A stretch of DNA of 54,594 bases from Candidatus Falkowbacteria bacterium CG10_big_fil_rev_8_21_14_0_10_39_11. Lineage in GTDB: Bacteria > Patescibacteriota > Patescibacteriia > UBA11705. The stretch covers positions 1-54,594 of the forward strand of contig PFAP01000002.1 in the NCBI GenBank assembly GCA_002773615.1, in the 5' to 3' direction. The position numbers and the translations under genes were made by a program. Below are positions 90 through 50,506 of this stretch, in pieces (the first letter of the stretch is position 1; each line of letters starts with the position of its first letter). The notes beneath the pieces were generated by a model, which saw only the letters and a program-made list of their open reading frames with translations, searched no databases and had not been told where the DNA came from.

Positions 90-118
90 TTGACAATGTT
101 TGGTTCGCGTGATATAAT
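90..118 (+). promoter_or_regulatory. sigma70 promoter (TTGACA-17-TATAAT, extended -10)
   Basis: TTGACA 90-95, 17-nt spacer, TG then TATAAT 113-118, upstream of ORF 152. Confidence 0.8.
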
Positions 119-151
119 TTATGGTTCAAAACCCCAAAATTGAGGTGAAAC

Positions 152-562
152 ATGAGTAAGAAAATCAGAAAGTACTGGTTGGTATGGTTCCATCAAGATC
201 ATTATGGTACTTTTCAGCGAGTCTATCCTGCTTGGATTCTCGGAGAAGAAGACTGCAAGAAGAAATATGGCGCTGCGGTCAAAGCTACTAGCATGGATGA
301 AGCAAAGGCTCTCTTGTGTGCGGCATATGATAACAAGCCAGCACCGTCTGTTCACAGTTGGAAGTGTTGCTTTGAGAAATCAGATGATTGGTCTCCCTTT
401 GATTGGGATTGGTTGAAAAGAGCAGATTGGATGGAGTGGACTAGCAATGAGGACGAGATGCCCAGAAGACAAATTCGATTGAGTAAGTTTCATTCCTTGG
501 TATTTGATGATAAACCGGTTTCTGTCAGGGCGGTTGAAAAACGGATGCATTTTTATGTCTGA
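152..562 (+). CDS. hypothetical protein (Trp-rich orphan)
   Basis: 136-aa ORF with GAGGTG SD and its own promoter. Confidence 0.65.
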   Translation: MSKKIRKYWLVWFHQDHYGTFQRVYPAWILGEEDCKKKYGAAVKATSMDEAKALLCAAYDNKPAPSVHSWKCCFEKSDDWSPFDWDWLKRADWMEWTSNEDEMPRRQIRLSKFHSLVFDDKPVSVRAVEKRMHFYV

Positions 563-762
563 TTGCTGGCTTGTTTTCCGGATGGAATTTTTGATCTGAC
601 TACAAACAAACTTCGACAATTTCCAATCATTATTGACAATCAGAATTTGGTTTTGATCGAACTGATCATGAACCTGTGTTTTGACATCTGATGATAAGAT
701 TCTTGATATGGTGATGGATCTGCTTTATCGTACACTGGGCCGCTAAGCCACAGAAGGAACGT

Positions 763-1032
763 ATGTCGAATCTGGCAGTTACACATGGTGGGATGGGCGA
801 GGTGTTTGTCGTTGACAAGCGTGGCAACCGAATTCGGATCGAGGAAAATGAAGACGAGATTGTTGTCGTCAATCAGACCACTGATAGGTGTGCTTACAAG
901 GACAATAAAGATCGACGGAAGTATCTTTTCAAGGGTGCGCGACCGCTGATGCAGTGGCAGCGTTGGGATCAGGTTCTACATGGATCGGTAGCTTTAATCA
1001 GAGCTACTTTTTGTTTGACGGAAATAGTGTAA
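763..1032 (+). CDS. hypothetical protein
   Basis: 89-aa ORF, AAGGA SD. Confidence 0.55.
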   Translation: MSNLAVTHGGMGEVFVVDKRGNRIRIEENEDEIVVVNQTTDRCAYKDNKDRRKYLFKGARPLMQWQRWDQVLHGSVALIRATFCLTEIV

Positions 1033-1072
1033 TTTGGTAAGTTAATTTCACTACAACTGGGAGGAGGACAGT

Positions 1073-1315
1073 ATGGGTAATTTTGATTCATATTCTTCCA
1101 AATTTTTAGTCCAAGCAAGATATCGATTACAGGTGTTATATCGAAGATGGTGTAGTGCTGATGATATTGAACGAGCACTTGATTGGTCAGATGATGACAG
1201 AGAACAAGCTAAAAATGCTTTGCTCGATATAAAGAAAATTGAAGCAGTCTTGGCACACCGAAGAAGACTGGAAGAACAGGAGCCAATTCATGAATGTATC
1301 TCGGCTCAAGGTTAA
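1073..1315 (+). CDS. hypothetical protein
   Basis: 80-aa ORF, GGGAGGAGG SD. Confidence 0.6.
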   Translation: MGNFDSYSSKFLVQARYRLQVLYRRWCSADDIERALDWSDDDREQAKNALLDIKKIEAVLAHRRRLEEQEPIHECISAQG

Positions 1316-1360
1316 GGCGTTTGGGATGAAGTTTGCCATTCAGGATAAGGAAGTCGTGAC

Positions 1361-1690
1361 ATGAAGATGGTCCAAACAGAATTCACTTGTCAGGCATTCA
1401 AACTGACGGTAGAAGTCGATGGTCGTGTCGTTGGGAGAGCTACTCTGGTTGTCATGCCAAATGAGCTTCATGATCGTCCGGCGGGTTTTTTGGAGGACGT
1501 TGAAGTTGACGATGCTTTTAAGGGACAGGGGATTGGCACAAAGTTAGTTCAGGAGATAATTGGTTTGGCTCGGGGGAAGTGCTATAAATTGGTAGATACC
1601 AGTCGTTTTTCTAGACCCAAGGTCCATGCTTGGTATGAAAGGCTGGGATTTAAGCGACATGGTTATGAGTTTAGATTGGATTTTGATTGA
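1361..1690 (+). CDS. GNAT family N-acetyltransferase
   Basis: LEDVEVD..FKGQGIGTKL acetyl-CoA motif A and WYERLGF motif B. Confidence 0.9.
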   Translation: MKMVQTEFTCQAFKLTVEVDGRVVGRATLVVMPNELHDRPAGFLEDVEVDDAFKGQGIGTKLVQEIIGLARGKCYKLVDTSRFSRPKVHAWYERLGFKRHGYEFRLDFD

Positions 1691-2645: not shown

Positions 2646-2674
2646 TTGACAAAAACTGAATTTATTGATATGAT
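2646..2674 (+). promoter_or_regulatory. sigma70 promoter
   Basis: TTGACA 2646-2651, 17 nt, TATGAT 2669-2674. Confidence 0.65.
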
Positions 2675-2707
2675 TGTTGGTTATCATATCACACCTGACT
2701 GGAGGCA

Positions 2708-2956
2708 TTGATGACTACACGCAAAGATAAGATGTTTTCTGTTTTTATGAGTCTTTTGTTGTTGGCATTGTGGACCAATTTTGTAGCTTTGGTGATTTTT
2801 ATGATTCAAGCTGGATGGCTATCGCATTTTATCCCTTGGATCATTTTGTTAGTAATGACTGCGCTTGTGTGGTTTGTCTCAGTGTTGTCTTTGCCGATCA
2901 TTGCAAATGTTTGGAAAATTAAATGGTTAATAAAATTGGTTGGTGATGGCTCGTAA
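2708..2956 (+). CDS. small membrane protein
   Basis: two hydrophobic helices, GGAGG SD, hairpin plus T-run overlapping the stop. Confidence 0.65.
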   Translation: MMTTRKDKMFSVFMSLLLLALWTNFVALVIFMIQAGWLSHFIPWIILLVMTALVWFVSVLSLPIIANVWKIKWLIKLVGDGS

Positions 2957-2985
2957 ATACGAGTCATTTTTGTATTACGAATCTA

Positions 2986-3026: not shown

Positions 3027-3101
3027 TTTAATGGTTATTTATACTACGAATAAAAAAGGCGGTTTTATCATTATACAAAAAAACCTACGTGTTAGTAGGT
3101 T

Positions 3102-3557
3102 TTACTTTTGGGAAATGAGTTTCCAGGTGGGATTGATGACAATCCTCGGAGTATAATCCGGCGGAATCGCTGGTTGTACGGCCAATCGTTCGGCACCACA
3201 ATTGATCAATTCAATGCGAGTTCGTGGCCACTGGACTTCAGTTCTACCATGAAGAACTTTGCAGGTCGCAAAGACGTCTGGGTAGAACTTTAGGCGAATG
3301 ATGTTACCGCAGTTTGAAGTCGAGCCATATTCCATAATGTATTCCTGGAACAGGAATGTGAGCTTGAGATCAAAATCTGGGGCCGAGTACCAGATACATT
3401 TTTCTGATTCTGACTGACCTGATTGCATGAACGGAATGTCCGAATAGGCCTGGACTGTTTCTGGGCCATACTTGTGGTCTTGAACTTGTGTCTTAACCGA
3501 TGAGCAACTTAAAAACACAAAGCTTAGAATGGCGATAGTAAGAAACTTGAGTCGCAT
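3102..3557 (-). CDS. orphan lipoprotein
   Basis: likely start MRLKFLTIA at 3557 after GGAGGAGG SD; FLSC lipobox; TTGACT-17-TATAAT promoter on the minus strand at 3632-3604. Confidence 0.7.
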   Translation of the reverse strand: MRLKFLTIAILSFVFLSCSSVKTQVQDHKYGPETVQAYSDIPFMQSGQSESEKCIWYSAPDFDLKLTFLFQEYIMEYGSTSNCGNIIRLKFYPDVFATCKVLHGRTEVQWPRTRIELINCGAERLAVQPAIPPDYTPRIVINPTWKLISQK

Positions 3558-3707
3558 CTTTTCCTCCTCCAGTGGTGGTCTGCGTCGACAGTCGACAATC
3601 ACAATTATATCAAATCTAAAAATTAAAGTCAATGGTGAGTTTGTGGATACTTGACAACATATTAGTTATATGATAAAATATGTAGTTAATCACCTAGGGA
3701 GGGCAAT

Positions 3708-4679
3708 ATGAAAACGTTCCGGCAGTGTTTCTTGCTGATTTGCGTGGCTTTGGTTGCTGCTTGTAATTTTGATGTACCGCCGATTGATGTGCCTAAAATT
3801 GAGATTGATCAGCCTGAATATCCGGATTTTAATCAGTTGATTGATTTTTGGACCAGTAGTCAGGGATCTGACAGCGATGGTGAGATTGACCATAATCAAT
3901 GTGATGATGGTGATCCGTGTACTGATGATTTCTTTGTCCCGGGATTTGGTTGTCACTGTGATGACAACGGGACATGTGTCGATGATCACGTTCTCAGTTC
4001 CGAGGCAGATGCTGTCGAGCCTTGTCAAAATGGAGTCTGTACATTTGGGTTGGAGTTGAATGCTCATACCGGCATTAGTTTTTTTAAACCGTATAAAGCC
4101 AATGCTTGGGCTTATGACGCCAATGGTATGTTGGTATTTGTTATGACTGATGATCATGTTGGTGTTCTGGGGGATACTGAAGTTCTCCCGAGTGTTATTA
4201 CTATGCTCAAAAAGTTTCGCTATCCCGCTGAAACATTTAACGTGTATTTGACTGGCGGAGCTGCTTGTAGTCCAGCACATAATGTTTTGAGATTTGAACA
4301 AATTCCGGAAAATGTTTTTCTGGGCTTTGACCGAACTTTTCGGCCAACATATCTTGGTTATTTTACTCAAGACTATACCTATGTTGATTATATGCTCGAT
4401 AATTATGATTTGATGGTGGTTTGTTGGTATGGTGATCAAGATTGGCTTAGTGATGAGGCCCGAGCAATTCATGATGATAGTATCCGTGAATTGATTAACG
4501 CTGGAATGGATGTGCTCTTTGTCACTGATGCTCTTCGCACGATTTCGACGACAGAGAGTAATGCTCCAACGCTGCTCCATATTCATCGTTTGAATGAATG
4601 GCTGGAGAGATATGGCGTGGATGTTATTCCTGGATATCTCGAAAGTGGAAACACCCAGGGAGAAATTATTGTAAATTAA
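3708..4679 (+). CDS. lipoprotein with Cys-rich CDDGDPCTDD motif
   Basis: VAAC lipobox, Cys-rich segment, GGGAGG SD, promoter TTGACA 3651 / TAAAAT 3674. Confidence 0.75.
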   Translation: MKTFRQCFLLICVALVAACNFDVPPIDVPKIEIDQPEYPDFNQLIDFWTSSQGSDSDGEIDHNQCDDGDPCTDDFFVPGFGCHCDDNGTCVDDHVLSSEADAVEPCQNGVCTFGLELNAHTGISFFKPYKANAWAYDANGMLVFVMTDDHVGVLGDTEVLPSVITMLKKFRYPAETFNVYLTGGAACSPAHNVLRFEQIPENVFLGFDRTFRPTYLGYFTQDYTYVDYMLDNYDLMVVCWYGDQDWLSDEARAIHDDSIRELINAGMDVLFVTDALRTISTTESNAPTLLHIHRLNEWLERYGVDVIPGYLESGNTQGEIIVN

Positions 4680-4783
4680 GCAACACAAAGTGTTGTTTTT
4701 TTGCATCTTGTTTACATATGATACTATTTATGATATACTGTTATGTAGTATTGACAACAATCAAAATCAAGGATGGATGACCG

Positions 4784-5504: not shown

Positions 5505-6776
5505 ATGTTAGATATAAAATTTATTAGAGAGAATTTAAATGATGTAATCACGGCGGCTGAAAATAAAAATATCAAAATTGATTTTGACAAACTTTTACAA
5601 TTGGATGATAAGCGGCGTGACCTCACTCAAAAATCAGAAGAATTTCGAATGAAAAAAAATGAGGCTTCAAAACAAATTCCCAAGTTGGAAGGCATTGACA
5701 AAGAATATCTTTTGGCTGAAATGAAGACTTTGACTGAGGATCAGAATAAGATTGAGGACCAATTGATTAAAATCAAGGCGGAGTTTGATAGTTTAATGTT
5801 GTTGGTGCCAATGGTTCCAAGCAAAGAGACTCCCGTTGGTAAGGATGAAGACTCAAATGAAGAAATTAAGCGCTGGGGTGAACTGAGGACATTTGAGTTC
5901 GACCTTAAAGATCATATGACTCTGGGACGTGATTTGGATATTATTGATAATGAACGAGCAGCAAAAATTGCCGGCAGTCGATCATATATTCTGAAAGGTG
6001 ATGGTGCCAGGCTTGAGTATGCGGTGTTAAAGTATGCAATGGATTTTATTGCACGCAAAAATTATATATTGATGAGCGTGCCGGTAATGGTCAACCGTTT
6101 TGCCCTTGAAGGGACCGGTTTTTTTCCTGGCAATGAAGACGATATCTATGAATTGGAGAAAGACAACAAGTTTTTAGTTGGAACTTCAGAAGTACCACTT
6201 GGAGCTTATTATTTTGATGAAGTGGTTGATATGAGTCAATTACCAATAAAATTTTCTGGGGTGTCAACTTGTTATCGTCGAGAATCTGGAACCTACGGCA
6301 AAGATACTCATGGACTATATAGAGTCCATCAGTTTAATAAGATTGAACAGTTTGTCATTTGTAAAGGAGAGGCGGAGGAAAGTCAGAAGGCATTTGACGA
6401 GCTGAAAGCTAATACTGAAGAGTTTTTGCAAAGTTTAAATCTGCCATATAGAGTATTGAATGTTTGTACCGGTGATATGGGTAAGGGAAAGTATTATATG
6501 AATGATCTGGAATGTTGGATGCCCAGTCGTGATGGCTATGGTGAGACTCACTCATGTTCAAACCTTCATGATTTTCAAGCACGGCGATTGAATTTGCGAT
6601 ACAAAGATGAGTCGGGTAAAATGCAATTTTGTCATACGTTGAACAACACAATGGTAGCAACTCCGAGAATATTGATACCGATTATTGAGAACAATCAAAA
6701 TGAAGATGGTTCTATAACCATTCCTGAAGTTTTGAGACCATATATGGCTAACCAAGAAAAAATCGAGAAAAAATAG
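5505..6776 (+). CDS. serS: serine--tRNA ligase
   Basis: MLDIKFIRE start, GTSEVPL, YRRESG..GLYRVHQF, SCSN..DFQARRL, HTLNNT. Confidence 0.98.
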   Translation: MLDIKFIRENLNDVITAAENKNIKIDFDKLLQLDDKRRDLTQKSEEFRMKKNEASKQIPKLEGIDKEYLLAEMKTLTEDQNKIEDQLIKIKAEFDSLMLLVPMVPSKETPVGKDEDSNEEIKRWGELRTFEFDLKDHMTLGRDLDIIDNERAAKIAGSRSYILKGDGARLEYAVLKYAMDFIARKNYILMSVPVMVNRFALEGTGFFPGNEDDIYELEKDNKFLVGTSEVPLGAYYFDEVVDMSQLPIKFSGVSTCYRRESGTYGKDTHGLYRVHQFNKIEQFVICKGEAEESQKAFDELKANTEEFLQSLNLPYRVLNVCTGDMGKGKYYMNDLECWMPSRDGYGETHSCSNLHDFQARRLNLRYKDESGKMQFCHTLNNTMVATPRILIPIIENNQNEDGSITIPEVLRPYMANQEKIEKK

Positions 6777-6903
6777 CCACGAATTTACAAATATTATTAA
6801 GATTGTGAATGATAAACGATTGGTTATTAAATTAAGTATTTGTTATAATAGATAGAGTCGAAAGGCTCTATTTTGTATTATAATTTAAGAATATAAGTTT
6901 TTG

Positions 6904-6987
6904 TGTCATGCTGAAGTTTTCGATTGAATATAACCCTTTCCGCCTACGTAAACACTTTGGCGGACAGGTGAGGGCTTCAGGGTGACA
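6904..6987. repeat. REP-like element TGTCATGCTGAAG...CTTCAGGGTGACA with a nested CCTTTCCGCC...GGCGGACAGG element
   Basis: terminal inverted arms; inner element 6935-6968 recurs at 26424-26457. Confidence 0.65.
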
Positions 6988-7000
6988 ACACACAAAAAAT

Positions 7001-8074
7001 ATGAAAAAATTAAAAGCAAATTTTCAGGATCGATCATATGATATTTTTTATCAATTAGGCTTGATTGATAAAACTGGTACTTTAATTAAACCGCTCAAAA
7101 CTGATAAGAAAGTGGTGATTGTTTCTGAGGCAAATATTAAAAAATTGTTTGGATCCAAGTTGGAAAAGAGTTTGAAACAAAGCGGGTTTAAGTTTTCTTG
7201 GGTTTTGCTCAGGGGTGGCCAAGAAAAAACATTGGCTGAGATTGAGCGTCTTTATCATTTGTTTGCTAAACAAAACTTATCACGGCATTCAGTCGTAATT
7301 TCTTTGGGTGGGGGATCGGTGCAGGATTTGGCCTGTTTTGCCGCGGCTACTTTCAAGCGAGGACTGAAGTTGGTACAAATCCCAACCACGTTACTAATTT
7401 CATCAGATGTCAGTATTGGTGGTTGTGCAGTTGACTTGCCAGAAGGCAAGAGCTTGGTCGGGACTTTTTATCAGCCAGTTTTGGTGATTCAAGATGTGGC
7501 TTTGCTCAAAGGATTACCTGATATTATTTATAGAGATGGTTTGGCTGAAATTATTAAATACTCAATCAATGCTGGATTTTTTGATCAATTAGAAAAAGAT
7601 TTTGTCAAATTAATAAAGCGTGATTTAAAAGTGGTTGAAAAGTATGTTTATTTGTCAAACAAGATAAAGAAGGAATTGACTGAACAGGATGAAAGAGATT
7701 GTCATGACATCCGGATCCAGGTTGACTTGGGGCACACGATTTCTCATGCGCTTGAAGCGATTATGAATTATAAAATTTCTCATGGTCAGGCTTTGGGGAT
7801 TGGGCTAAGGGGAGCGGTTTTGTTGTCAGAGATGAGTGGTGGTTTGAGTAAAACAAAACGCGAGAGAGTGGAAAAATTAATTGTGGATTCAGGCTTGCCA
7901 TATACATTACCCAAGGGAGTGACGTATGCAGAGTTAATCAAGCATATAAAGAAAGATAAGAAGTGTTATGGCAATAAGTTGGTGTTTATTTTAATTAAGG
8001 ATTTTGGCCAACTGACAATTACGCATAAAGTGCATGAAAATATGGTAAAAAAAGTAATTGATTTGATAAAATAG
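7001..8074 (+). CDS. aroB: 3-dehydroquinate synthase-family sugar-phosphate cyclase (divergent)
   Basis: LGGGSVQDL, QIPTTLL, GLAEIIK, LGHTISHALE, ISHGQA, DKK motifs. Confidence 0.75.
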   Translation: MKKLKANFQDRSYDIFYQLGLIDKTGTLIKPLKTDKKVVIVSEANIKKLFGSKLEKSLKQSGFKFSWVLLRGGQEKTLAEIERLYHLFAKQNLSRHSVVISLGGGSVQDLACFAAATFKRGLKLVQIPTTLLISSDVSIGGCAVDLPEGKSLVGTFYQPVLVIQDVALLKGLPDIIYRDGLAEIIKYSINAGFFDQLEKDFVKLIKRDLKVVEKYVYLSNKIKKELTEQDERDCHDIRIQVDLGHTISHALEAIMNYKISHGQALGIGLRGAVLLSEMSGGLSKTKRERVEKLIVDSGLPYTLPKGVTYAELIKHIKKDKKCYGNKLVFILIKDFGQLTITHKVHENMVKKVIDLIK

Positions 8075-8377
8075 TGTATAGTTAATCATAAGGGGTAACA
8101 CTTTGATAAAATAAGGTAACAAAGGTTAACTCATAATATCAAAGTAAAATATGGCTGGTTCACCTCTTACAAATGGTACAATAGAGATCATGGACTGATA
8201 AAATCAAGTAAATACAGACCAAGAAAAATCCACCCGCATACGAAGCTAACATTTAAAATCAAAACGATTATTCAAGAAGTCAAACGCATGAAGGCAAGGG
8301 AATGAACGGTTTAACTCCACACGAAAAATACCTTATTTTAGCCTCTAAAGGTGTAACCCTTGAAGGTTAACTGTACA
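8075..8377 (+). mobile_element. IS481-family miniature/deleted insertion sequence
   Basis: TGT...ACA ends, 27-bp imperfect terminal IRs (21/27), AATAG direct repeat at 8070-8074 and 8378-8382, transposase-like N- and C-terminal fragments. Confidence 0.8.
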
Positions 8378-8441
8378 AATAGTTGACAAATACAGATAAA
8401 TTTTGTAAAGTGTATTTTGGCCCAATTAACGGGAGGGAGCC

Positions 8442-8786
8442 ATGAATAAGTTCTGTTATCGTTGGGGATTTGTATCTTTACAGACTTCAAAGCCGTTGAC
8501 GAATCGGTTGGTGAAAGTTTTGGTCCATTTTGGTCAAAAGATTCTTTTTGATCCCGATCGACATTCTGGTGAGCCTGGTTATGTTGAGATTTCTCTGTCT
8601 AAAAATGATCCGTGGAATGATGTTGCTGGTGTGATCACAACCGAAGGTCGGCATGTAAATCTCGGTGGTTTGTCTGGATTACATTTGCTGGCAGAGTTGG
8701 AGTCTGACGAGGGTGATTTTAAGGTAAGTTTTATGCTTAGCGGACGAGAGGAAATGATCAATCCCCGTTCTAGCATGTCACATTAA
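8442..8786 (+). CDS. hypothetical protein
   Basis: 114-aa ORF, GGGAGGGAG SD, TTGACA at 8383. Confidence 0.65.
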   Translation: MNKFCYRWGFVSLQTSKPLTNRLVKVLVHFGQKILFDPDRHSGEPGYVEISLSKNDPWNDVAGVITTEGRHVNLGGLSGLHLLAELESDEGDFKVSFMLSGREEMINPRSSMSH

Positions 8787-8809
8787 TTGATCATAAAATG
8801 GAGGGGAAA

Positions 8810-9073
8810 ATGGAAGGCCTTCGCATCAGATTTCTAGAAATACAGAAGTTTTACGGCAGTTTCCCGGTCGATTCCGACCTGGGGAAAAGTTTGCAGTCTT
8901 CTGGTAAAGTGGCTGAGAGAGTTATTTCCACCGATGATGTAATGACGATTGTGTCAGTCTCTAATGTTGCTGGCGGCAAGACAATTTTTGTGGCCGTGCC
9001 TGAGCGTAGTAAACGACAGCGTAGAATCGTTTTTCGCAACATCGATAATATGGCTATTGAATTAGTAGCATAG
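8810..9073 (+). CDS. hypothetical protein
   Basis: GGAGG SD before ATG 8810; terminator GGGTCAA..TTGACTC plus T-run follows. Confidence 0.6.
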   Translation: MEGLRIRFLEIQKFYGSFPVDSDLGKSLQSSGKVAERVISTDDVMTIVSVSNVAGGKTIFVAVPERSKRQRRIVFRNIDNMAIELVA

Positions 9074-9134
9074 GGGTCAATAAGCTTGACTCTTTTTTTA
9101 TTGTCAAAAAAGAGAATTATGGTAAAATAGATCT

Positions 9135-10277
9135 ATGGAAAATATAAAGCCAAAAACTTGGATTGAATTAAGTCAAGAAAATATTAATTTTAATTTGGAT
9201 AAATTTCGAAACAGAGTAGGGGAGCAGGTTAAAATTATGGGAGTGGTCAAGTCAAATGCTTATGGGCATGGGGCGATTCAGGTTGCCCGGATGATTGAGA
9301 AAAAGGTAGATTACTTTGCGGTTGATTCGATTGACGAGGCGTTAGAAATCAAAAATGAAGTAGGGGGGAAGCCGATCCTCATTTTGGGATATACTTTGCA
9401 TGACAATTTGAAAATAGTGATTGAAAATGAGTTTGAACAGGTATTAGCAAACATTGAGACTCTTGAAAGATTGAAAAAAGAATCTGAAATATTAAAAAAG
9501 GCGGCCAAGGTTCATTTGAAGATTGAAACTGGTACCTCACGTCAAGGAATTTTTCAAGCAGATATTGATCAGTATTTGGATTTAATCAAAGCATCTAATT
9601 TTTTGCAGTTAGCTGGAATCTCAACTCATTTTGCCAATATTGAGGATACTACAGATTTTTCTTTTGCGATGAAACAATTGGATGTATATAAAAAAGCGGT
9701 TGAATATATTGAGCAAAAAGGTTTCTTTGGATTTTTGAAACATACGGCCAGTAGTGCCGCAGCGATTATTTATCCTGAAACTCATTTTGATGCGGTCAGA
9801 GTTGGAATAAGTCTTTACGGTTTGTGGTCAGCGCCTCAAACTTTTGTTACTTCCGGGCAAATAAATAATGGTTTTGCTTTGAAGCCGGTATTAACGTGGA
9901 AGACCATTGTGGCTCATATAAAAACATTACCCGCGGGGACATATGTTAGTTATGGCTGTACGGAAAAAGTGGAAAAGGAAACACAAGTGGCTGTATTGCC
10001 AATTGGCTATCGTGATGGTTTTGATCGTAAACTGTCTTCAATTGGCGAAGTTTTGATTCATGGCAAGCGATGTCGAGTTTTGGGTCGCGTGTGTATGAAT
10101 ATGGTTGTGGTAGACATAGATCATCTTGATGATGTCCAATTGGAAGATGATGTGGTTTTGATTGGACCGCAATATGATGAAGTGGTCACAGCTGAAGAGA
10201 TTGCAGCCAAGATCAACACCATTAACTATGAGGTAGTAACAAGAATTAATTGGGAGATTGAGAGACGTAAAATATAA
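9135..10277 (+). CDS. alr: alanine racemase
   Basis: VVKSNAYGHG PLP-lysine motif, HLKIETG, VSYG, GRVCMN, TINYE. Confidence 0.97.
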   Translation: MENIKPKTWIELSQENINFNLDKFRNRVGEQVKIMGVVKSNAYGHGAIQVARMIEKKVDYFAVDSIDEALEIKNEVGGKPILILGYTLHDNLKIVIENEFEQVLANIETLERLKKESEILKKAAKVHLKIETGTSRQGIFQADIDQYLDLIKASNFLQLAGISTHFANIEDTTDFSFAMKQLDVYKKAVEYIEQKGFFGFLKHTASSAAAIIYPETHFDAVRVGISLYGLWSAPQTFVTSGQINNGFALKPVLTWKTIVAHIKTLPAGTYVSYGCTEKVEKETQVAVLPIGYRDGFDRKLSSIGEVLIHGKRCRVLGRVCMNMVVVDIDHLDDVQLEDDVVLIGPQYDEVVTAEEIAAKINTINYEVVTRINWEIERRKI

Positions 10278-10399
10278 TTTACCTAATTATACTAATTGCT
10301 CTAATTAACCCAAATAAATGCCAGGATCCAATTACTCTAAATTACTATTTTGGGATTTAGTAATTGGGCATTACTTATAATAATTAGATCAATTAGAGC

Positions 10400-10440
10400 T
10401 TATTCGCCATAAGACGAATCCGTCCTTCGGCGGAGAATAA
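10400..10440. repeat. intergenic palindromic element (CCGCCGAAGG..GGATTCG type)
   Basis: TTATTC...GAATAA arms enclosing a GC-rich core just before ftsQ. Confidence 0.45.
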
Positions 10441-10445
10441 TTTTC

Positions 10446-27085: not shown

Positions 27086-27097
27086 TGGAGGATCTAC

Positions 27098-39023: not shown

Positions 39024-39106
39024 GCGAATAACATTCGCTTTTTTTGATACTTGAAAAATTTTTGTTTTTGTGGTAAAAGAAAGATAGCAAACAAAAGGAG
39101 GACAAA

Positions 39107-40192: not shown

Positions 40193-40280
40193 AAAGCGAA
40201 TAATATTCGCTTTTTTTGATACTTGTAAATTATTGTTGTTTGTGTTATAAAGAAACGTAACAAACACAAAGGGGGTGGGC

Positions 40281-40913: not shown

Positions 40914-40965
40914 GCGAATAATATTCGCTTTTTTTATTTTTTTAAGGTAAAATAAGGGTGAAAAT

Positions 40966-42858
40966 ATGAATAAAATTGCCCAAATTACTCCTTTACGAAA
41001 ATTGCCGCGAGACATTGATTTTTTTGATTATGAAATTCCTGAAATTTTAGCGGCAGCGGTCAAAGTCGGTTCTTTGGTTGAGGTACCATTTAAAAGTAGT
41101 GTGGTTCAGGGAGTGGTTATGGCGATCGTAAATACCAGCAAATTCAAAAAGTTGAGAGCTGTTACCGGAGTGATCGATTCTCAAGTGACAGTATCAGATT
41201 GGCAGGTAAAATTGATCAAATGGTTTGCTGAATACTATATGTATTCACTTTCCTCGGCTGTTAGAATGTTTGTACCTGAAAAACCGACACGGAAATATAC
41301 AGAGAAACCAAGCGTTGATAATTTCGCTAAAGTAGACACGGATTTGATGGTTGGTGCGGATGTACTTAGATTAAGAAAACTCTTGGTTACCAAGGGAAAA
41401 GAGCAAAATTTGATTATCAATCATGATCCGAACAAGAATGATCAGTTAATTTTATCTTTGATTGAACAAGTAATTGATTCAGACAAGCAGATTATCATAA
41501 TGGTGCCTCACGTGGAAAAAATCAAAGATATTCTCCAATTGATTCCGGCGAGATATAATCGCAAATTAGTGGTGATAAAAAGCTCATTATTCCGAAAAAA
41601 AAATGCTTGGCATAAAACTTGGCGTGATATTTATACTAACAAAAAGAATATCATTGTAGGCACTAGATCGGCGATATTAGTTCCGACCAATAAATTGACT
41701 TACATTTATATCAATGAAGCTGAGTCAGTCGATTATAAAAATTGGGATCAAAATCCACGGTATGATGCGATCAATGTGGCTGCCAAGTTGGCGTCTTTGA
41801 CTAAAGCCAAGTTGATTATCAGCTCGGCAGCGCCCAATATTGAGACTTATCAGCCGATTGCGGTGAATAAACAACCGATAATTACTTTGGGGAAAAATTT
41901 GACACCACAAGAATTGCAAATTATTGATTTTAAAAGTGTCAGACGCAACGAATTTACCTATTACAGCCCGCAACTGATTGAGAATATAAAAAAAAGCTTG
42001 GCTGAAGACAAAAGAGTCATCTTGTTTTTGAATAAAAGGGGCTATTCCAGTCAAACTAGATGCAATAAGTGTGATTTTACTTTAAAATGTCCTAGTTGCT
42101 CATTGCCATTGGTTGGAATCCATCAACAGATGGTCTGTTATCATTGTAAACACAAGCAACCAATGACAAGCAAATGTCCAAAATGTAACAAGGGTGAATT
42201 GAAAGATTTGGGTATTGGGATTGATCAGGTGGCTGACAATTTGAAGCAAATTTTCCCAGATGTCAGTTTGGATGATCCAACAGCCAAGATTTATCTCGCT
42301 ACGACCCTGCCTGCCAAAAAAAGTGTCTTCAAACAAGTTGGATTTATTGGTGTGATCACGTGGGACAGTATGCTTTATATAGCGGATTTTCGGCTCGCCA
42401 CTCGGTTTTACCAGCAGTTGTGGACACTTTGTTATCTCAAACGAAAGTGGGCTCCCACAGCCAAAATATTGCTTCAGACAGCTCTACCGGAATCCCAAAC
42501 ATTTCATAATATTTATCAGGATTATTCTCGGTATTATTCTGAAGAATTAGGGAAACGAAAGCTGTTCTCTTATCCGCCATATTCAAAGTTAATGCTAATA
42601 TTTATTCAAAATAAGGTAAAAAATATCTGCCAACAAGAAGCAAATGAAATTTACCAGCAATTGATGTCACAATTTGGTTCAGTTCAAGCAATCAAGGCTT
42701 CAGCGCCATATTTTGCTCATCGACAGATGGTGAGAGGACAATATCGGTGCAATATTTTGCTAAAAATACAGGGTGATGATCAGATTATTCGTGCTTGGCT
42801 CAAGGATAAGTTGCCAGATTATTGGACCATTGACATTGACCCGATAAATGTAGTATAA
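40966..42858 (+). CDS. priA: primosomal protein N' (degenerate helicase motifs)
   Basis: FDY..P N-domain, VGTRSA, Q.PRYDA, LFLNKRGYS, four CxxC pairs, YPPY, IDIDP. Confidence 0.9.
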   Translation: MNKIAQITPLRKLPRDIDFFDYEIPEILAAAVKVGSLVEVPFKSSVVQGVVMAIVNTSKFKKLRAVTGVIDSQVTVSDWQVKLIKWFAEYYMYSLSSAVRMFVPEKPTRKYTEKPSVDNFAKVDTDLMVGADVLRLRKLLVTKGKEQNLIINHDPNKNDQLILSLIEQVIDSDKQIIIMVPHVEKIKDILQLIPARYNRKLVVIKSSLFRKKNAWHKTWRDIYTNKKNIIVGTRSAILVPTNKLTYIYINEAESVDYKNWDQNPRYDAINVAAKLASLTKAKLIISSAAPNIETYQPIAVNKQPIITLGKNLTPQELQIIDFKSVRRNEFTYYSPQLIENIKKSLAEDKRVILFLNKRGYSSQTRCNKCDFTLKCPSCSLPLVGIHQQMVCYHCKHKQPMTSKCPKCNKGELKDLGIGIDQVADNLKQIFPDVSLDDPTAKIYLATTLPAKKSVFKQVGFIGVITWDSMLYIADFRLATRFYQQLWTLCYLKRKWAPTAKILLQTALPESQTFHNIYQDYSRYYSEELGKRKLFSYPPYSKLMLIFIQNKVKNICQQEANEIYQQLMSQFGSVQAIKASAPYFAHRQMVRGQYRCNILLKIQGDDQIIRAWLKDKLPDYWTIDIDPINVV

Positions 42859-42917
42859 TAAGAGCGAAAAGCGCAAAGATTGTAACTTTTTTAATTTCGA
42901 AAAAACGATCCAAATAT

Positions 42918-43409
42918 ATGATATTACCGGTAATTACATATCCAAATAAAAATCTCAGAAAAAAGTCTGAAGAGCTTTCAGTTGAGAAAATTGCTTCACC
43001 GGAAGTCCAGTCTTTCATTACTGATTTGATTGAAACGATGCTGAAAGAAGACGGTTTAGGTTTGGCGGCGGTTCAAGTTGACAAGCATTGGCGTATATTT
43101 GCGGTCGCGACCGAAGATGGACCGATGGTCTTTATTAACCCCAAAATTTCTTTCAAGTCTTGGTTCAAGGAAATGGATGAAGAAGGTTGTCTATCAATTC
43201 CTGGTGTTTTTGGTACAGTCAAAAGACCCAAAGCAGTTATTATCAAATCGCTGGATCGAAATGGAGAAAAAGTTTCCATGAAAGCGACCGGTTTATTTGC
43301 TCGAGTTATTCAACATGAATTTGATCACGTCAATGGAGATTTGTTTATTGATAAAATTCAGACCGTAACTCGAGGGCAAGAAATCTTGGATGAAATGAAA
43401 GCGAAGTAA
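42918..43409 (+). CDS. def: peptide deformylase
   Basis: GLGLAAVQ, EGCLSIPG, QHEFDH. Confidence 0.97.
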   Translation: MILPVITYPNKNLRKKSEELSVEKIASPEVQSFITDLIETMLKEDGLGLAAVQVDKHWRIFAVATEDGPMVFINPKISFKSWFKEMDEEGCLSIPGVFGTVKRPKAVIIKSLDRNGEKVSMKATGLFARVIQHEFDHVNGDLFIDKIQTVTRGQEILDEMKAK

Positions 43410-43444
43410 TTCATTACCGATAAACATAAGTTTATATTACATTT

Positions 43445-44422
43445 ATGCCAGAAACGAATAAAAGAAAAATAGTTTTTATGGGCACATCAGAATTTGCTGT
43501 ACCTATTTTGAAATCTTTGAATGATTGTTATGACGTAGTTTTGGTCGTCGTTTCACCAGATAAGCCGACCGGACGAAAACAAGCAATTACTCCCCCGCCG
43601 GTCAAGATCCTCGCGAACGAATTGGGCTTGAAAGTTGAACAACCAACTAAATTACGAGGCAATGAAGAGTTTTTTAATACATTGAAAAAAGTTAACCCGG
43701 AAGTAATTGTCGTGGTTGCTTATGGGAAGATTTTACCGGCGGAGATTATCAATTTACCTGAACATGGATGTATCAATGTTCATGGATCTATTTTGCCAAA
43801 ATATCGTGGACCCTCACCGATTCAGACAGCTCTTATCAATGGCGAGAAAGAAACCGGTATTTCATTTATTTTAATGGATTTGGGTATGGATACTGGTGAT
43901 GTTATTCGTAAGTATTCAATCAATATAGAATCGGAAGATGATTTTAACTCTTTGAGCGGAAAATTGTCAGCATTATCAGCGGAAAAGGTTTGTAAGGTTG
44001 TCGAGCAATATGTTAACGGTGATACAAATTTGGAGATGCAAGAAGATGATGAGGCGACATATTGCTACAAGATCACTGAAACAATGGGGCGGATTCAATG
44101 GTCGCTATCAGCTCGAGCGATTGCCAACAGAATCCGAGCGATTGGCGGGAAAGTCGGCGTTTATACATTTTTTGATGAAAAAAGATTGAGAATTATTGAA
44201 GCCGAAGGTGTTGATAGTCATTGTGTAAAAGATAATGCCAGTATTTCGGTCGGAACGGTGTTTCAAGGCGTTGATCCTGAGACAAATATAAAAATGGTCT
44301 GTGTCAAATGCGGGAAAGGCCGGTTGATATTGAAAAAAGTCCAGCTTGAAGGCAGGCAGCCGATGGCTATCAAAGATTTTGTCAATGGACAACAGAAATT
44401 TGTTGGTAGTGTGTTGTCATAA
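43445..44422 (+). CDS. fmt: methionyl-tRNA formyltransferase
   Basis: VFMGTSEFA, VVAYGKIL, NVHGSILPKYRGPSPI, MDTGD. Confidence 0.97.
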   Translation: MPETNKRKIVFMGTSEFAVPILKSLNDCYDVVLVVVSPDKPTGRKQAITPPPVKILANELGLKVEQPTKLRGNEEFFNTLKKVNPEVIVVVAYGKILPAEIINLPEHGCINVHGSILPKYRGPSPIQTALINGEKETGISFILMDLGMDTGDVIRKYSINIESEDDFNSLSGKLSALSAEKVCKVVEQYVNGDTNLEMQEDDEATYCYKITETMGRIQWSLSARAIANRIRAIGGKVGVYTFFDEKRLRIIEAEGVDSHCVKDNASISVGTVFQGVDPETNIKMVCVKCGKGRLILKKVQLEGRQPMAIKDFVNGQQKFVGSVLS

Positions 44423-47023: not shown

Positions 47024-47098
47024 TCAACGGGTTGACGATAATGTGGTTATTTGTTAAGCTCAATTATCAATAATGTTCCTTTCAAACAAGGAGGTCGT

Positions 47099-47389
47099 AT
47101 GAGAACCAGATGGTCGGCAATGACTATTCTAATTGCTGTGCTTGTTGTAATAATGATGATGTTCGTCGGTTGTACTCCGGGCGGATGTATTGGTGCTTTC
47201 CTTGGAGTATTGATTATGTCTTTGATCTTTGCGGCTATAGCTGGCGTGATACCTTTTGTTGGACCGACCATTGCTATCGTTGTTTTCTTTGGCTTTATGT
47301 GGCATGCATTTAGTGCCGGTGATTCGCCGGTCAAGAAATATTGCGGTTGTAGCAGCGTTTGTTCAGAAGTTTCTGACCCAGGGAGGTAA
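47099..47389 (+). CDS. small Cys-containing membrane (lipo)protein, paralog A
   Basis: AAGGAGG SD; FVGC lipobox-like; IPFVGPTI; CGCS. Confidence 0.7.
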   Translation: MRTRWSAMTILIAVLVVIMMMFVGCTPGGCIGAFLGVLIMSLIFAAIAGVIPFVGPTIAIVVFFGFMWHAFSAGDSPVKKYCGCSSVCSEVSDPGR

Positions 47390-47392
47390 ATA

Positions 47393-47740
47393 ATGAAGTT
47401 AAAAACGTGGGGTAAATCTTCCTTGATGATAGCTATCTTATTGATGATGCTCAGCATGACTTCGTGTCAGATGGAACATTGTGCTGCTCATCTAATCGGA
47501 ATGATTATTGGAAGCCTCCTATTCTTTTGGCTTTGTTGTATTATTCCAATTGTGGGGCCGACAATTGGGATCGTGTTAATCATTGGTGTTTGGTCTGATG
47601 ATTGTAATAACGATCGATCTTTGACGCAAACTCAGTGTGGCTGTAGTGCGGCTTGTGATGAATATGATTATCCTCAAGAACAAAAGCTCTTGTACGAAGA
47701 TGAAGAAGGTCCGGATCCAGTTGATGGTACGGCCTTTTGA
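47393..47740 (+). CDS. small Cys-containing membrane (lipo)protein, paralog B
   Basis: GGGAGG SD; MTSC lipobox-like; IPIVGPTI; CGCS; acidic tail. Confidence 0.7.
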   Translation: MKLKTWGKSSLMIAILLMMLSMTSCQMEHCAAHLIGMIIGSLLFFWLCCIIPIVGPTIGIVLIIGVWSDDCNNDRSLTQTQCGCSAACDEYDYPQEQKLLYEDEEGPDPVDGTAF

Positions 47741-47837
47741 AAAGAATAAAAATACAATCGAAACATCGATTGTTTTATTTTAGGTAAAAATTTAGTATAA
47801 TGGTATTGAAACAGTGAACAGTTATCAGTTGATTGGT

Positions 47838-47917: not shown

Positions 47918-47936
47918 ATATAAATATTACGAAACT

Positions 47937-48410
47937 ATGAATAAACAAATTAAAGCAATTCTGACTGACTTTTCTTGGGTGTTATTATTCCCAAAGGATG
48001 AAAAATTCACTGGCAAACTCAATGCTTTTTATGAAAAATTGAAAGAAGACAGCGAATTTGATTTTTGGGATTACTTTAAATTGAATGATGAACTTTTGAA
48101 TTTTTATAAAAATAGTCCTTTGGATGTTTATGTGTTTACTTCTGCTTATATTCAAGAACACCCCCCATTGGCTGCCAAGTTGGACGGATTTTTTAAGGAA
48201 ACTTTTAGCGCAGCGCGTTTGAATCTAAAAAAAACCGAGTCAGATAGTTATAAAACCCTGGCCGTTGAAATAAATTTGAAACCGGAAGAAATTTTATTCA
48301 TTGATGACCGACCAGAGCATAATGTGGCCGCCAAAGAAGCTGGAATGGTGGCGATTCAATATCAATCAAACGAACAGGTTATGCGAGAGGTTGATAAGAT
48401 TATTAATTGA
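47937..48410 (+). CDS. HAD family hydrolase
   Basis: IKAILTDFSWVL, FTS, ILFIDD...NV.AA...GM. Confidence 0.85.
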   Translation: MNKQIKAILTDFSWVLLFPKDEKFTGKLNAFYEKLKEDSEFDFWDYFKLNDELLNFYKNSPLDVYVFTSAYIQEHPPLAAKLDGFFKETFSAARLNLKKTESDSYKTLAVEINLKPEEILFIDDRPEHNVAAKEAGMVAIQYQSNEQVMREVDKIIN

Positions 48411-48418
48411 CATTAAAT

Positions 48419-48820
48419 ATGAAAAAAGCAATCCAAATTTTATTAATAACAATTCTGGTGATAATTGTTGCGATAATTGTGGTTTTTGCCTTTGATATTT
48501 TTGATTATAGAACCAAGTTTATCAGTAAGACGGTAAATACGTTTTTAAGTAAAAATATCGAGGATTATACTCCGCTAGATCAGCTTGAAAAATCAGACGG
48601 AACCATTCCCGAGTCTAATGATTTGCACCCATTGTTAAATTCAGAACAAGAAAAAACATTAACCGAACTGGGTGTGAATGTTAGCCAGCTGCCGACTGAA
48701 TTAACCGCAGATGATCAAGAATGTTTGGTTGAAGTTTTGGGACAAACTCGATTTCAAGAATTGTACAACGGTGCGACTCCCGGAGCAGTGGATCTGATTA
48801 AGGCAAAAAAATGTTTTTAA
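48419..48820 (+). CDS. membrane-anchored hypothetical protein
   Basis: N-terminal TM; C-terminal Cys pair. Confidence 0.7.
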   Translation: MKKAIQILLITILVIIVAIIVVFAFDIFDYRTKFISKTVNTFLSKNIEDYTPLDQLEKSDGTIPESNDLHPLLNSEQEKTLTELGVNVSQLPTELTADDQECLVEVLGQTRFQELYNGATPGAVDLIKAKKCF

Positions 48821-48862
48821 AAAAATAATTTGTGCCTTCACAGGTTAAATTTAATATTAAAT

Positions 48863-49333
48863 ATGAATAAAATAGTTTTGGCGATAATAATTATCTTTGT
48901 AATCATGTTAGTTGCTGCTGCCGGCTGGAAATTATATGATATTGCCGTTGATGATGTTGTAGTCCGGATCGAGCAACAAGTTTATGAGATTCCTGAAAAT
49001 GAAAAAGCCGCTACGGTTGGAATTGAAATTGTAAATAGAACTCAGAAGATAATTTATTTTCGCTCTCCTTTTTGTGACGATCCGTTTGATGTTTATCAAT
49101 TGTCAGCGGATGGTACTTGGGAAGTGAGATCTGATTTAATCAATATGTGTTTTGGCGTAGATGGTGGGGCACCGGCGATTGAGCCCTTGGATCCCGGTGA
49201 AACCAAAAAAGTGACAAAAGCAATAACGGGTTTGGGGAAATATAAGATTGGATTTTTGTATTATTTATCACCGGAAGATCTGACACAATCGGAAGAAATG
49301 ATTTTTACCCCAGAGTTTGAGGTTATTAATTGA
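48863..49333 (+). CDS. exported hypothetical protein (Ig-like fold possible)
   Basis: N-terminal TM; LDPGE, GKYKI, PEFEV pattern. Confidence 0.65.
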   Translation: MNKIVLAIIIIFVIMLVAAAGWKLYDIAVDDVVVRIEQQVYEIPENEKAATVGIEIVNRTQKIIYFRSPFCDDPFDVYQLSADGTWEVRSDLINMCFGVDGGAPAIEPLDPGETKKVTKAITGLGKYKIGFLYYLSPEDLTQSEEMIFTPEFEVIN

Positions 49334-49445
49334 AAATAAATTAAAGGGGCCAGTCCCCTTTTTTGTTTGGCCAGTGGACAAAATTTTAATCATGTGGTAA
49401 CTTGATGAATCGGTTTTTTGACAAAATAAACATGGAGGCGAAAGG

Positions 49446-50453
49446 ATGCAACCAAACCAACGATATTATTATTATGATGAGATAGTTGCAATATTAAGAA
49501 ATTTAAAAATTAGAACACGAAGGGTTTATCACCAACTTTGTAAAAAAGATACACTGGTTCCATATTCACCGGATGTTGAGTATCATGATTGTTGGGAAGA
49601 GTATGGAGGTTGGCCAGGATTTTTTGGTGTGAAATCTTATAGAAGAAGCGGTGATGTTTATGAAACTTGGGAAGAAGCTTCGGCAGCAACAATAAAACTT
49701 GATATAAAGGGACAGGAAGACTACCAGGTTGATTATGAAGATGACCCGAGGTTGCCGTCAAATCCAGATGTGACCTATAATGATGTTTGGAAGAAAAATG
49801 GCGGTTGGGGTGGTTTTTGTGGTACAAATAGACGGCATAGAAGTCCGAAAGATATTTATCAGACTTATGCTGAAGCAAAAGCGGCAGTTCAGAAAATTGG
49901 TTTTAGATCAGCTCGCGATTATAACAAGCATCATCAACTGCAAGATCCCAGACTGCCTCCGAAACCACATGAAAAATACCCAAAAGAGTGGAAGAAAAAT
50001 GGTCGCTGGTCCGGTTATCTAGATTTGAAAATAAAGCCAAGACTGGCTAATGGTCGGTATTTTCTCTGGGAAGATGCTTCCAAGGCAGTACAAAGGTTAG
50101 GGATTAAAAGTGGGCCAGAGTATCGACGGCGCTACAAAGAAGATCCCAAGCTGCCAAGTTCGGTGATGAAAACTTATTTGAAAGATTGGAAACCCAAGGG
50201 TAAATGGTATGGCTTTTTGGGTAAAGTTCCCAAGTATAAATTTTGGGCAGAGGCAGCCCCTGCAGCTAGAAAGCTTGGGATTACCAGTCCAGGTGAGTAT
50301 AGTCGGTTGCGTCACAAAGATCCTCGTTTGCCCGTTGATCCCAGAAAAGCTTATAAGGGTGACTGGTATCTTCATGATACCTGGACGGGCTTTTTGGGCT
50401 TGATGGAAATTGAAAAGCCAGATGACGAGTGGGAAATTTGGGAGGAGGAATAA
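49446..50453 (+). CDS. integrase-repeat-unit-type protein without catalytic integrase domain
   Basis: about five repeats of W.EA..A..KLGI....Y...Y..DPRLP..P...Y...W..FLG; GGAGG SD. Confidence 0.8.
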   Translation: MQPNQRYYYYDEIVAILRNLKIRTRRVYHQLCKKDTLVPYSPDVEYHDCWEEYGGWPGFFGVKSYRRSGDVYETWEEASAATIKLDIKGQEDYQVDYEDDPRLPSNPDVTYNDVWKKNGGWGGFCGTNRRHRSPKDIYQTYAEAKAAVQKIGFRSARDYNKHHQLQDPRLPPKPHEKYPKEWKKNGRWSGYLDLKIKPRLANGRYFLWEDASKAVQRLGIKSGPEYRRRYKEDPKLPSSVMKTYLKDWKPKGKWYGFLGKVPKYKFWAEAAPAARKLGITSPGEYSRLRHKDPRLPVDPRKAYKGDWYLHDTWTGFLGLMEIEKPDDEWEIWEEE

Positions 50454-50506
50454 GCAACTCGCAAATAAAATTTGTGAGTTTTTTTGTACAAAAAAGTACT
50501 ATTATA

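Follow-up and report, generated by a model that had tools for sequence, protein, structure and literature searches.

Integron cassettes are promoterless, carry attC sites and adjoin an integrase. Phage morons are independent transcription units inserted between phage genes (PMC3594210). Initiation of translation independent of the Shine-Dalgarno (SD) sequence has been described in Bacteroidia such as Flavobacterium johnsoniae (PMC6847099, PMC7797042, PMC9976891), and the start determinants in Flavobacterium are A at -3, -6, -12 and -13 (PMC6847099). In Escherichia coli, U at -1 pairs with A37 of the initiator tRNA and raises initiation (PMC10018350), and a patchy loss of the anti-SD has been reported for Parcubacteria (PMC9297842). 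We have analysed a stretch of 54,594 nucleotides (nt) from the tiny groundwater organism Candidatus Falkowbacteria bacterium CG10_big_fil_rev_8_21_14_0_10_39_11 (GenBank assembly GCA_002773615.1, contig PFAP01000002.1, positions 1 to 54,594; hereafter the window), in which genes led by a strong SD lie among core genes that have none. Two gene classes with different start signals are confirmed in the window, throughout the genome and in a second genome of the same genus.

The window is contig C30 of a 1.10-Mb assembly (G000; 53 contigs, 85% complete). Genes were called with a purpose-written finder (3-periodic Markov model from open reading frames (ORFs) of at least 300 amino acids (aa), greedy overlap removal, longest start), which gave 1023 genes. 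SD strength was taken as the duplex energy of positions -20 to -3 with CACCUCCUUUC. Genes were classed as SD-led at -9 kcal/mol or below at the longest start (133 genes) and as SD-less above -5 kcal/mol when no alternative start inside 120 nt reached -7 (615 genes), and 265 of 1013 genes were ambiguous. Removal of 15 genes that could not be mapped to fetched loci left 131 SD-led, 604 SD-less and 263 ambiguous genes. The thresholds were set ahead of the comparisons, yet they are arbitrary, and the motif scorers were purpose-written. The same-genus genome (G001; 1.31 Mb, whole) was treated identically and has 170 SD-led, 679 SD-less and 336 ambiguous genes. The gene-by-gene comparison covers this one congener, and the two genomes are kin. 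Paired figures throughout refer to G000 and then to G001.

A strong SD (-9 kcal/mol or below) was found at 132 of 1009 longest starts in G000, compared with 16 of 1009 at the control positions -60 to -42 and 19 of 1009 inside genes. When alternative starts were allowed, a further 136 of 867 genes were SD-led (control rate 26/525), which brings the class from about 13% of genes on the strict call to about 22%. The earlier note on this DNA had described the SD-led units as sitting singly, and genome-wide 75 of 98 runs of SD-led genes are indeed single genes, with mild clustering (33 adjacent pairs against 16.3 +- 3.5 expected). SD-led genes lie on 39 of the 47 contigs with called genes, inside syntenic core context, and contamination or a binning artefact was rejected on these grounds. 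Contigs C42 (6 of 10 genes SD-led) and C31 (6 of 12) have a higher GC content (0.42 and 0.415) and may be accessory islands or mis-binned DNA.

A comparison of SD strength with conservation class, which the earlier note had named as a check, revealed a genome-wide link. Pfam matches (E of at most 1e-5) were found for 39 of 131 SD-led genes (38/123 in the genome-wide scan and 1/8 window genes), compared with 99 of 150 SD-less genes (92/138 and 7/12), the latter being a partial sample of the 604: from 300 drawn at random and ordered by contig name, the first 150 were scanned. The contrast has a Fisher p of 1.5e-9, and stratification by length gives p=1.5e-9 with an odds ratio of 0.15. All ribosomal proteins, tRNA synthetases, SecY, SecA, DnaB, RF1 and EF-Ts in the Pfam sample are SD-less. 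The label of orphans holds for most SD-led genes but not for those with families, which include purA, purC, a purF-like amidotransferase, NAPRTase, nucleoside deoxyribosyltransferase, PBP2, NUDIX, HIT, kinases, transporters and one IS110 transposase. Only 4 of 103 Pfam-less SD-led proteins match PHROGs, and three window orphans, named here by their start positions, are nearly without relatives: 20 relatives yielded no match to either the 3708 or the 39107 product, the former matched only itself among 5.8 billion clusters and the latter only itself and its own paralog among 1.84 billion representatives, and the 31008 product has one relative, at 59% identity, in a large protein library. Thus, they are not ordinary phage genes with close homologs.

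The two classes differ in anatomy as well. Alignment of 300 SD-led genes from both genomes on the SD revealed a C/A-rich, G/T-poor stretch at -13 to -1 ahead of GGAGG, and an SD-to-ATG spacer of 4-6 nt in 225 of them. The alignment held no shared regulatory motif beyond promoter, C/A-rich leader and SD; a motif noticed by eye, 'TTTACAAC/TGAAC', had no fixed position in it. Where there was room for one, a promoter-like pair preceded 52/95 and 88/133 SD-led genes (shuffles 5.5 and 5.9) versus 76/316 and 91/397 SD-less genes (shuffles 27 and 31), and the -10 box of the SD-led promoters ended 25-39 nt before the ATG in 41/52 and 64/88 cases. Terminators at -12 to +70 of the stop were found for 66/131 and 99/170 SD-led genes, compared with 122/604 and 140/679 SD-less genes (p=1e-11 and 2e-20), and in G000 the stem begins at the stop in 57 of the 66 SD-led cases as against 43 of the 122 SD-less ones.

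SD-less starts are preceded by sequence with an A fraction of 0.40-0.50 and a G fraction of 0.07-0.12. In G000, the predicted folding energy of -30 to +30 is -4.9 kcal/mol in SD-less genes (-8.8 inside genes) and -8.9 kcal/mol in SD-led genes (-10.0 inside genes), and the GC content of the first 45 coding nt is 0.336 (gene mean 0.388) versus 0.406 (gene mean 0.422). T stands at -1 of the ATG in 388/486 and 446/539 SD-less genes (80-83%) and in 25/118 and 18/158 SD-led genes (11-21%), compared with 26% of internal in-frame ATGs. The base at -1 was not part of the class definition, and it is therefore an independent discriminator. There is a small leaderless-looking peak, in which the -10 box ends 4-9 nt before the ATG, in 17/316 and 16/397 SD-less genes with promoter room; on these low counts leaderless mRNA was rejected as the main SD-less mode.

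The pattern could be a by-product of operon position or gene calling, if SD, promoter and terminator are required by single genes but not by those inside operons, and if the orphans are swollen by spurious ORFs. SD-led genes do have longer upstream gaps (median 117 versus 79 nt) and an upstream neighbour that is more often on the opposite strand (48/131 versus 129/604), and our simple gene finder erred at 27098. However, 316 SD-less genes with a gap of at least 80 nt or a divergent neighbour still have no SD, the operon-internal SD-less genes def and fmt have none either, neither T at -1 nor the folding difference depends on operon position, and the outcome in G001 is the same. Spurious ORFs would land in the SD-less class and so weaken the link, not create it. 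We regard a by-product as very improbable.

Comparison with the congener separates the classes again. A reciprocal best match in G001 exists for 53/131 SD-led versus 402/604 SD-less genes of G000 (p=5.5e-8), and one in G000 for 50/170 versus 390/679 genes of G001 (p=6.8e-11); median identity of the ortholog pairs is 45% for SD-led and 74% for SD-less genes. Nevertheless, SD status is kept at this low identity. Among pairs with clean classes on both sides, 21 were SD-led in both genomes, 4 in G000 only, 7 in G001 only and 330 in neither (p=2e-24, odds ratio 247). Ortholog pairs are syntenic for 42 of 50 SD-led genes versus 374 of 397 SD-less genes (p=0.015).

The arrangement extends beyond the genus. 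The composite TTGACA-N38-58-GGAGG-N4-6-ATG has 68 copies in G000 and none when read backwards, and in G001 it has 84 copies by script and 83 by tool, with a backwards control of 1. It occurs in all 21 genomes of the order that were sampled, at 5-83 copies each (controls 0-1), the fewest (9 and 5) being in two genomes of family f4 with an altered 16S tail. In a further 100 genomes from the phylum, the composite is present in 69, with ten copies or more in 8 and a maximum of 26. AAGGAGG-N3-7-ATG was enriched over the control in all five relatives tested.

GC content bears on the origin of the SD-led genes. It exceeds that of SD-less genes by 3.4 points in both genomes (0.4225 versus 0.388, p=2e-17, in G000; 0.471 versus 0.437 in G001), and it is about the same in unique and shared SD-led genes (0.420 and 0.424 in G000; 0.474 and 0.466 in G001). 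Recent horizontal import from SD-using donors (bacteria, phages or plasmids), with donor signals and base composition kept, is compatible with this higher GC and a lower native coding score, with fewer Pfam matches and congener orthologs, with insertion between syntenic core genes, and with the mild clustering, the richness of C42 and C31 in SD-led genes and the IS110 transposase among them. However, the offset moves with the host genome (SD-led GC of 0.42 in G000 and 0.47 in G001, unique genes included), which argues against a common foreign pool, since such a pool would give one GC value in both. Against import stand also the retention of SD status at about 45% ortholog identity with 42/50 pairs syntenic, the 4/103 PHROGs matches, the three orphans for which libraries of 1.8-5.8 billion proteins contain one relative at most, and the composite module in all 21 genomes of the order. 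We hold import to be unlikely. The host-tracking GC, the synteny and the conserved class point to SD-led genes being resident, fast-diverging genes with high turnover.

Features of the window are as follows, with strand in brackets and ATG or TTG positions denoting start codons.

90..562 (+): unit 1; TTGACA(90)-N17-TATAAT, SD GAGGTG, ATG 152, 136-aa orphan; no terminator found; no Pfam, PHROG or homolog on the syntenic G001 contig.
1015..1315 (+): unit 2; TTGACG-N17-TAAGTT, SD GGGAGGAGG, ATG 1073, 80-aa orphan; no Pfam, PHROG or G001 homolog.
2646..2976 (+): unit 3; TTGACA-N17-TATGAT, SD TGGAGG, start TTG 2708 or ATG 2711, 82-aa membrane-like orphan; its stop is overlapped by the terminator.
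3072..3632 (-): unit 4; TTGACT-N17-TATAAT, SD GGAGGAGG, ATG 3557, 151-aa product that begins with a lipobox-like sequence; terminator at the stop.
3651..4706 (+): unit 5; TTGACA-N17-TAAAAT, SD GGGAGGG, ATG 3708, 323-aa lipobox-like orphan; terminator at the stop.
5505..11264 (+): SD-less core genes serS (5505), aroB (7001), alr (9135) and ftsQ (10446); A/T-rich upstream, T at -1 in 3 of 4.
8383..9102 (+), shared with unit 7: unit 6; TTGACA-N17-TAAAGT, SD GGGAGGGAG, ATG 8442, 114 aa; 64% homolog in G001.
8383..9102 (+), shared with unit 6: unit 7; SD GGAGGGG, ATG 8810, 87 aa; terminator at the stop.
12104..22063 (+): genes for two giant surface proteins (704 and 2547 aa), both without an SD.
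23467..26298 (-): gltX and a gene for an M23 peptidase, both SD-less.
27080..28219 (+): SD-led gene, ATG 27098, 373 aa, GC 65.5%, GC at third codon positions (GC3) 85%; no promoter or terminator found.
28535..29180 (+): SD-led gene of 197 aa with ATG 28553 and SD CGGAGGTGA, ending in a terminator at the stop; 51.5% identical to a G001 homolog.
30568..31451 (+): two SD-led units, ATG 30654 (71 aa) and ATG 31008 (128 aa, TTGACA-N17-TATATT), each with a terminator.
31456..34166 (+): clpB; perfect TTGACA-N16-TATAAT promoter, followed by about 45 nt of leader without an SD.
34209..34923 (+): SD-led unit; TTGACA-N16-TATACT, SD AGGAGGT, ATG 34271, 207 aa; terminator at the stop.
38205..40938 (+): three SD-led paralogs in tandem, ATG 38226, 39107 and 40281 (265, 361 and 210 aa), whose products all have an N-terminal membrane anchor.
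40966..44422 (+): priA with a weak AAGGGTG; def and fmt, SD-less.
47032..47781 (+): SD-led unit of two genes behind a TTGACG promoter-like site; ATG 47099 (96 aa) and ATG 47393 (115 aa) start products with lipobox-like N-termini, and a terminator follows.
49375..50488 (+): SD-led unit; SD TGGAGG, ATG 49446, 335-aa protein with INT_rpt repeats, then a terminator.

The description of these genes in the earlier note was borne out. It had credited 18 orphans with strong SDs, and at all 18 starts the SD/anti-SD duplex in positions -20 to -3 has an energy between -8.9 and -15.7 kcal/mol. It had given most of them a promoter and a terminator at the stop; a promoter-like TTGACA-N16-18-TAnnnT (score of at least 9) precedes 12 of the 18, and a hairpin with a T-run follows 13, in 9 of which the stem starts at most 2 nt from the stop. 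It had also listed core genes without an SD, with priA as a partial exception: serS, aroB, alr, ftsQ, gltX, clpB, def, fmt and both surface-protein genes have duplex energies of +2.0 to -6.6 and A/T-rich sequence in the upstream 20 nt, and the AAGGGTG of priA (-6.9) is retained as AAAGGTG in G001. Pfam confirmed the names serS, aroB, alr, ftsQ, M23 peptidase, gltX, clpB, priA, def, fmt and the two giant surface proteins. Pfam and PHROGs were empty for 17 of the 18 units, all without a named family, and Atlas look-ups of the orphans gave no match of at least 0.9 and low-confidence models only. A tool scan of 30001-50000 found 28 terminator-like sites versus 12.9 +- 3.5 in shuffles, and its best promoter matches include 30942 and 34209, both unit promoters. 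Rfam and tRNA scans of the window found nothing. A -10-like box (TAAAAT, TATAAT) ends 5-6 nt before the ATG of alr and of a 464-aa gene at 35826 (9080-9137; 35790-35828), which suggests leaderless transcripts.

Some SD-led genes of the window have further features. The gene at 27098-28219, with a GC3 of 85% in a 39%-GC genome, is kept at the syntenic G001 site with 40.7% identity, a GC3 of 94% and its SD, and has no Pfam family. Its plus-strand product matches G001 at E=2e-55 (tblastn) and the minus-strand ORF at only 2e-12; this antisense ORF (27071-28348) overlaps the gene and misled the gene finder. The protein of 49446-50453 contains the INT_rpt repeat (PF14882) five times, along with a weak RNase H1 N-terminal-like match; its G001 ortholog is twice as long (697 aa) and retains the SD, ACGGAGGAA. 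Lipoprotein-like signal peptides, with the lipobox Cys at about residue 18-25, are predicted on four SD-led orphans (3557(-), 3708, 47099 and 47393).

The window is syntenic with contig C6 of G001, and the common core genes are SD-less in both genomes; serS, aroB, alr and ftsQ have SD-less orthologs there at 62-79% identity. Presence or absence at orthologous sites was among the checks named beforehand. Units 152, 1073, 3708, 31008, 38226/39107/40281 and 47393 have no counterpart on C6; at other places C6 carries SD-led genes that the window does not share. Between LigB and priA lie 2.9 kb here, including the three paralogs, and 409 nt in G001, with no homolog of them; the gap after clpB is 1.66 kb here versus 184 nt there, on the one syntenic contig examined in detail. 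The empty LigB-priA site of G001 (C6:47232-47639) has GC-rich palindromic repeats and ends in a remnant resembling the terminator of the paralog array, GCGAATAAyATTCGC-T7, which ends each of the three genes here. Contigs from four other groundwater runs on 28001-48000 are only short pieces, identical to the window, but they bridge the core-unit junctions 37895-38572 and 40821-41639, both edges of the three-paralog array. The assembly is therefore sound.

Gene-cassette capture was one of the causes proposed in the earlier note, and we considered it in the form of a dedicated, integron-like system acting at intergenic sites. Single-gene units between core genes, repeated terminator-promoter joints in the tandem array and the terminator-like remnant at the empty LigB-priA site would fit it. 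Yet the units have their own promoters, shared units are syntenic (42/50), terminator sequences vary between units except in the paralog array, and no recombinase catalytic domain was found in the window, where attC-like sites were not sought systematically. Capture is not indicated, and of all the explanations considered we give it the least credence. The units resemble integron cassettes in being single genes that accumulate in arrays or intergenic sites, but because they carry promoters, and terminators as well, they are not integron cassettes; no integrase catalytic domain was seen in the window.

The comparison with phage morons is closer (PMC3594210). Like a moron, a unit is a single gene with its own promoter and intrinsic terminator, placed between genes that are adjacent in a relative and atypical in base composition. 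Unlike morons, however, the units lie in a cellular chromosome among housekeeping genes (serS, alr, clpB, priA) and not in a prophage, with PHROGs matches at 4/103; they make up about a fifth of the genes, and the shared ones are mostly inherited in place (42/50 syntenic); and an initiation signal absent from the other genes also sets them apart. Since they lie outside any phage, they are not morons in the strict sense.

The decoding side was examined through relatives. In the same family, G002 and G004 have a canonical anti-SD tail, CACCTCCTTTCT, with a 16S 3' end of GGACCACCTCCTTTCT. Elsewhere in the order the tail is canonical in family f3, TATCTCC in f4 and CAACTCC in one f2 genome. These altered f4 and f2 tails agree with the patchy anti-SD loss reported for Parcubacteria (PMC9297842). 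The changed anti-SD cores, UCUCC in two f4 genomes and ACUCC in one f2 genome (among G007, G010 and G014), stand beside many GGAGG-led starts that remain. The earlier note had also suggested mRNAs tuned to the ribosomes of a host; since same-family relatives carry the canonical CACCUCCUUUCU 16S tail, there is no need to invoke them. A four-domain S1 protein is present in relatives and absent from the incomplete G000 assembly. The putative initiator tRNA (G000 C53:63753-63827; G001 C5:15786-15860) has A37 and the anticodon loop CCCAUAA. This loop gives C at position 33, where U is usual; the tRNA also has a C1-A72 mismatch at the top of the acceptor and only two G-C pairs adjoining the loop.

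These findings can be set against what is described for Parcubacteria, E. coli and Bacteroidia. With the Parcubacteria, our order shares reduced reliance on SDs within the candidate phyla radiation (CPR) and altered tails in f2 and f4, but in this family the tail is canonical and a subset of genes would use it; the passages of PMC9297842 report loss of the rRNA motif and hold nothing on a split between genes within a genome. As in E. coli, U stands directly before AUG and the initiator tRNA has A37, the pairing being predicted here; there it is reported as a single statistical effect in a set of tens of thousands of reporters (PMC10018350), whereas here U(-1) occurs at 80-83% of SD-less starts and is depleted in SD-led genes. 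As in Bacteroidia (PMC6847099, PMC7797042, PMC9976891), core genes are SD-less with the anti-SD conserved, and starts are A-rich and weakly folded. In contrast to Bacteroidia, a large minority of genes here have strong SDs, compared with essentially one such gene in Flavobacterium; the dominant context is U at -1 and not A at -3, -6, -12 and -13; and protein bS21 (PF01165), which is required there to conceal the anti-SD, was not found in G000 (85% complete), G001 (97%) or G002 (100%), with a 28-bit match in G004. Given the abundant SDs and the failure to find bS21, the system is not Bacteroidia-type SD-blindness.

By analogy with bS21 control in Flavobacteriia, SD-led genes might form a co-regulated class, translated when the anti-SD tail is free or by a subset of ribosomes, for example at a host-attachment stage. 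Such control is described in Flavobacterium (PMC9976891, PMC13000453), and two nearly exclusive start signals in one genome, the conservation of class between orthologs and an anti-SD retained though most genes do not use an SD would all fit. Lipoprotein-like N-termini are also enriched, at 8/131 SD-led versus 7/604 SD-less genes by a crude pattern predictor; general N-terminal hydrophobicity is equal between classes (33/131 versus 143/604). Against co-regulation are the failure to find bS21 in G000, G001 and G002, the lack of a shared regulatory motif beyond promoter, C/A-rich leader and SD in the alignment, and the mixed functions of Pfam-bearing members (nucleotide salvage, transporters, kinases). 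We give it a low probability.

Our preferred reading, in which we have moderate confidence, is that two translation-initiation regimes are mapped onto two evolutionary compartments, a conserved core and flexible moron-like units. In the core, many of whose genes lie in operons, the start has no SD and is marked instead by a U before AUG and by RNA around the start codon that is poor in G, rich in A/U and unstructured by prediction. A flexible unit, in most cases one gene, opens with a sigma70-type promoter whose -10 box ends 25-39 nt before the ATG; the leader that follows is short and C/A-rich, GGAGG is separated from the ORF by 4-6 nt, and an intrinsic terminator begins at or in the stop. 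Such units make up about 13% of genes (strict) or about 22% (alternative starts). SD-led 5' ends are not AU-rich, not unfolded and without U(-1), and for this reason they would depend on SD/anti-SD pairing for recruitment of the 30S subunit. Insulated by their own promoter and terminator, units could be gained, duplicated and lost between core genes without disturbing operons, as with phage morons. The interpretation in the earlier note is partly supported: the separate expression class that it proposed is real and heritable, the classes differing in SD, promoter, terminator, base at -1, start folding, GC, evolution rate and conservation (odds ratio 247), but the causes that it offered, host ribosomes, a life stage and cassette capture, are unsupported.

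Several points weigh against this reading. The reading does not account for the 3.4-point GC offset. G000 lacks its own 16S in the assembly, and its anti-SD is that of relatives; in relatives with altered tails there is no clear change of SD, AAGGAGG being dominant in G007 and G010 (where UCUCC can wobble-pair) with a slight shift in G014. Transcript starts, transcript ends and translation are all inferred from sequence. Gene calls came from a simple finder, with uncertain starts (265/1013 ambiguous) and the wrong strand picked at 27098, and the SD-less Pfam figure comes from the partial sample described above. The split is statistical and not absolute: 30% of SD-led genes have Pfam families, and 34% of sampled SD-less genes (51/150) have none. 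At the loose 9/12 threshold, the tool scan of 30001-50000 gave 78 promoter-like sites versus 63.4 +- 8.8, a weak excess, and it placed perfect TTGACA/TATAAT promoters before clpB and def too, which shows that perfect promoters are not exclusive to SD-led units.

It is also conceivable, though we think it rather unlikely, that the two signals, 'U-AUG in open A-rich RNA' and 'promoter, CA leader, GGAGG', are separately controllable channels, through which the lineage-specific set would be toggled as a block, for example between free and host-attached life, via the 16S tail or the availability of S1; the split would then be an evolved feature of the order, whose members are ultra-small bacteria, and not a by-product of gene turnover. 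It may instead be no more than the way in which dispensable genes persist in this clade.

A search without subscription journals found no paper describing such a start-signal split. What is new is one small genome with two nearly exclusive start signals that follow the line between core and fast-turnover, lineage-specific genes, a start-signal choice that is inherited with the gene, and a promoter-SD module in every genome of the order sampled. CPR bacteria are mostly uncultured and start-codon choice in them is hardly known; U(-1) appears here as a dominant natural start mark and not a subtle modifier. Gene callers with one ribosome-binding-site model will mis-start or miss one class, and a gene of 85% GC3 escaped the present finder. 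The SD-led units are a ready list of candidate accessory, surface or host-interaction genes, and they raise the question of whether the flexible genome has a separate translational route.

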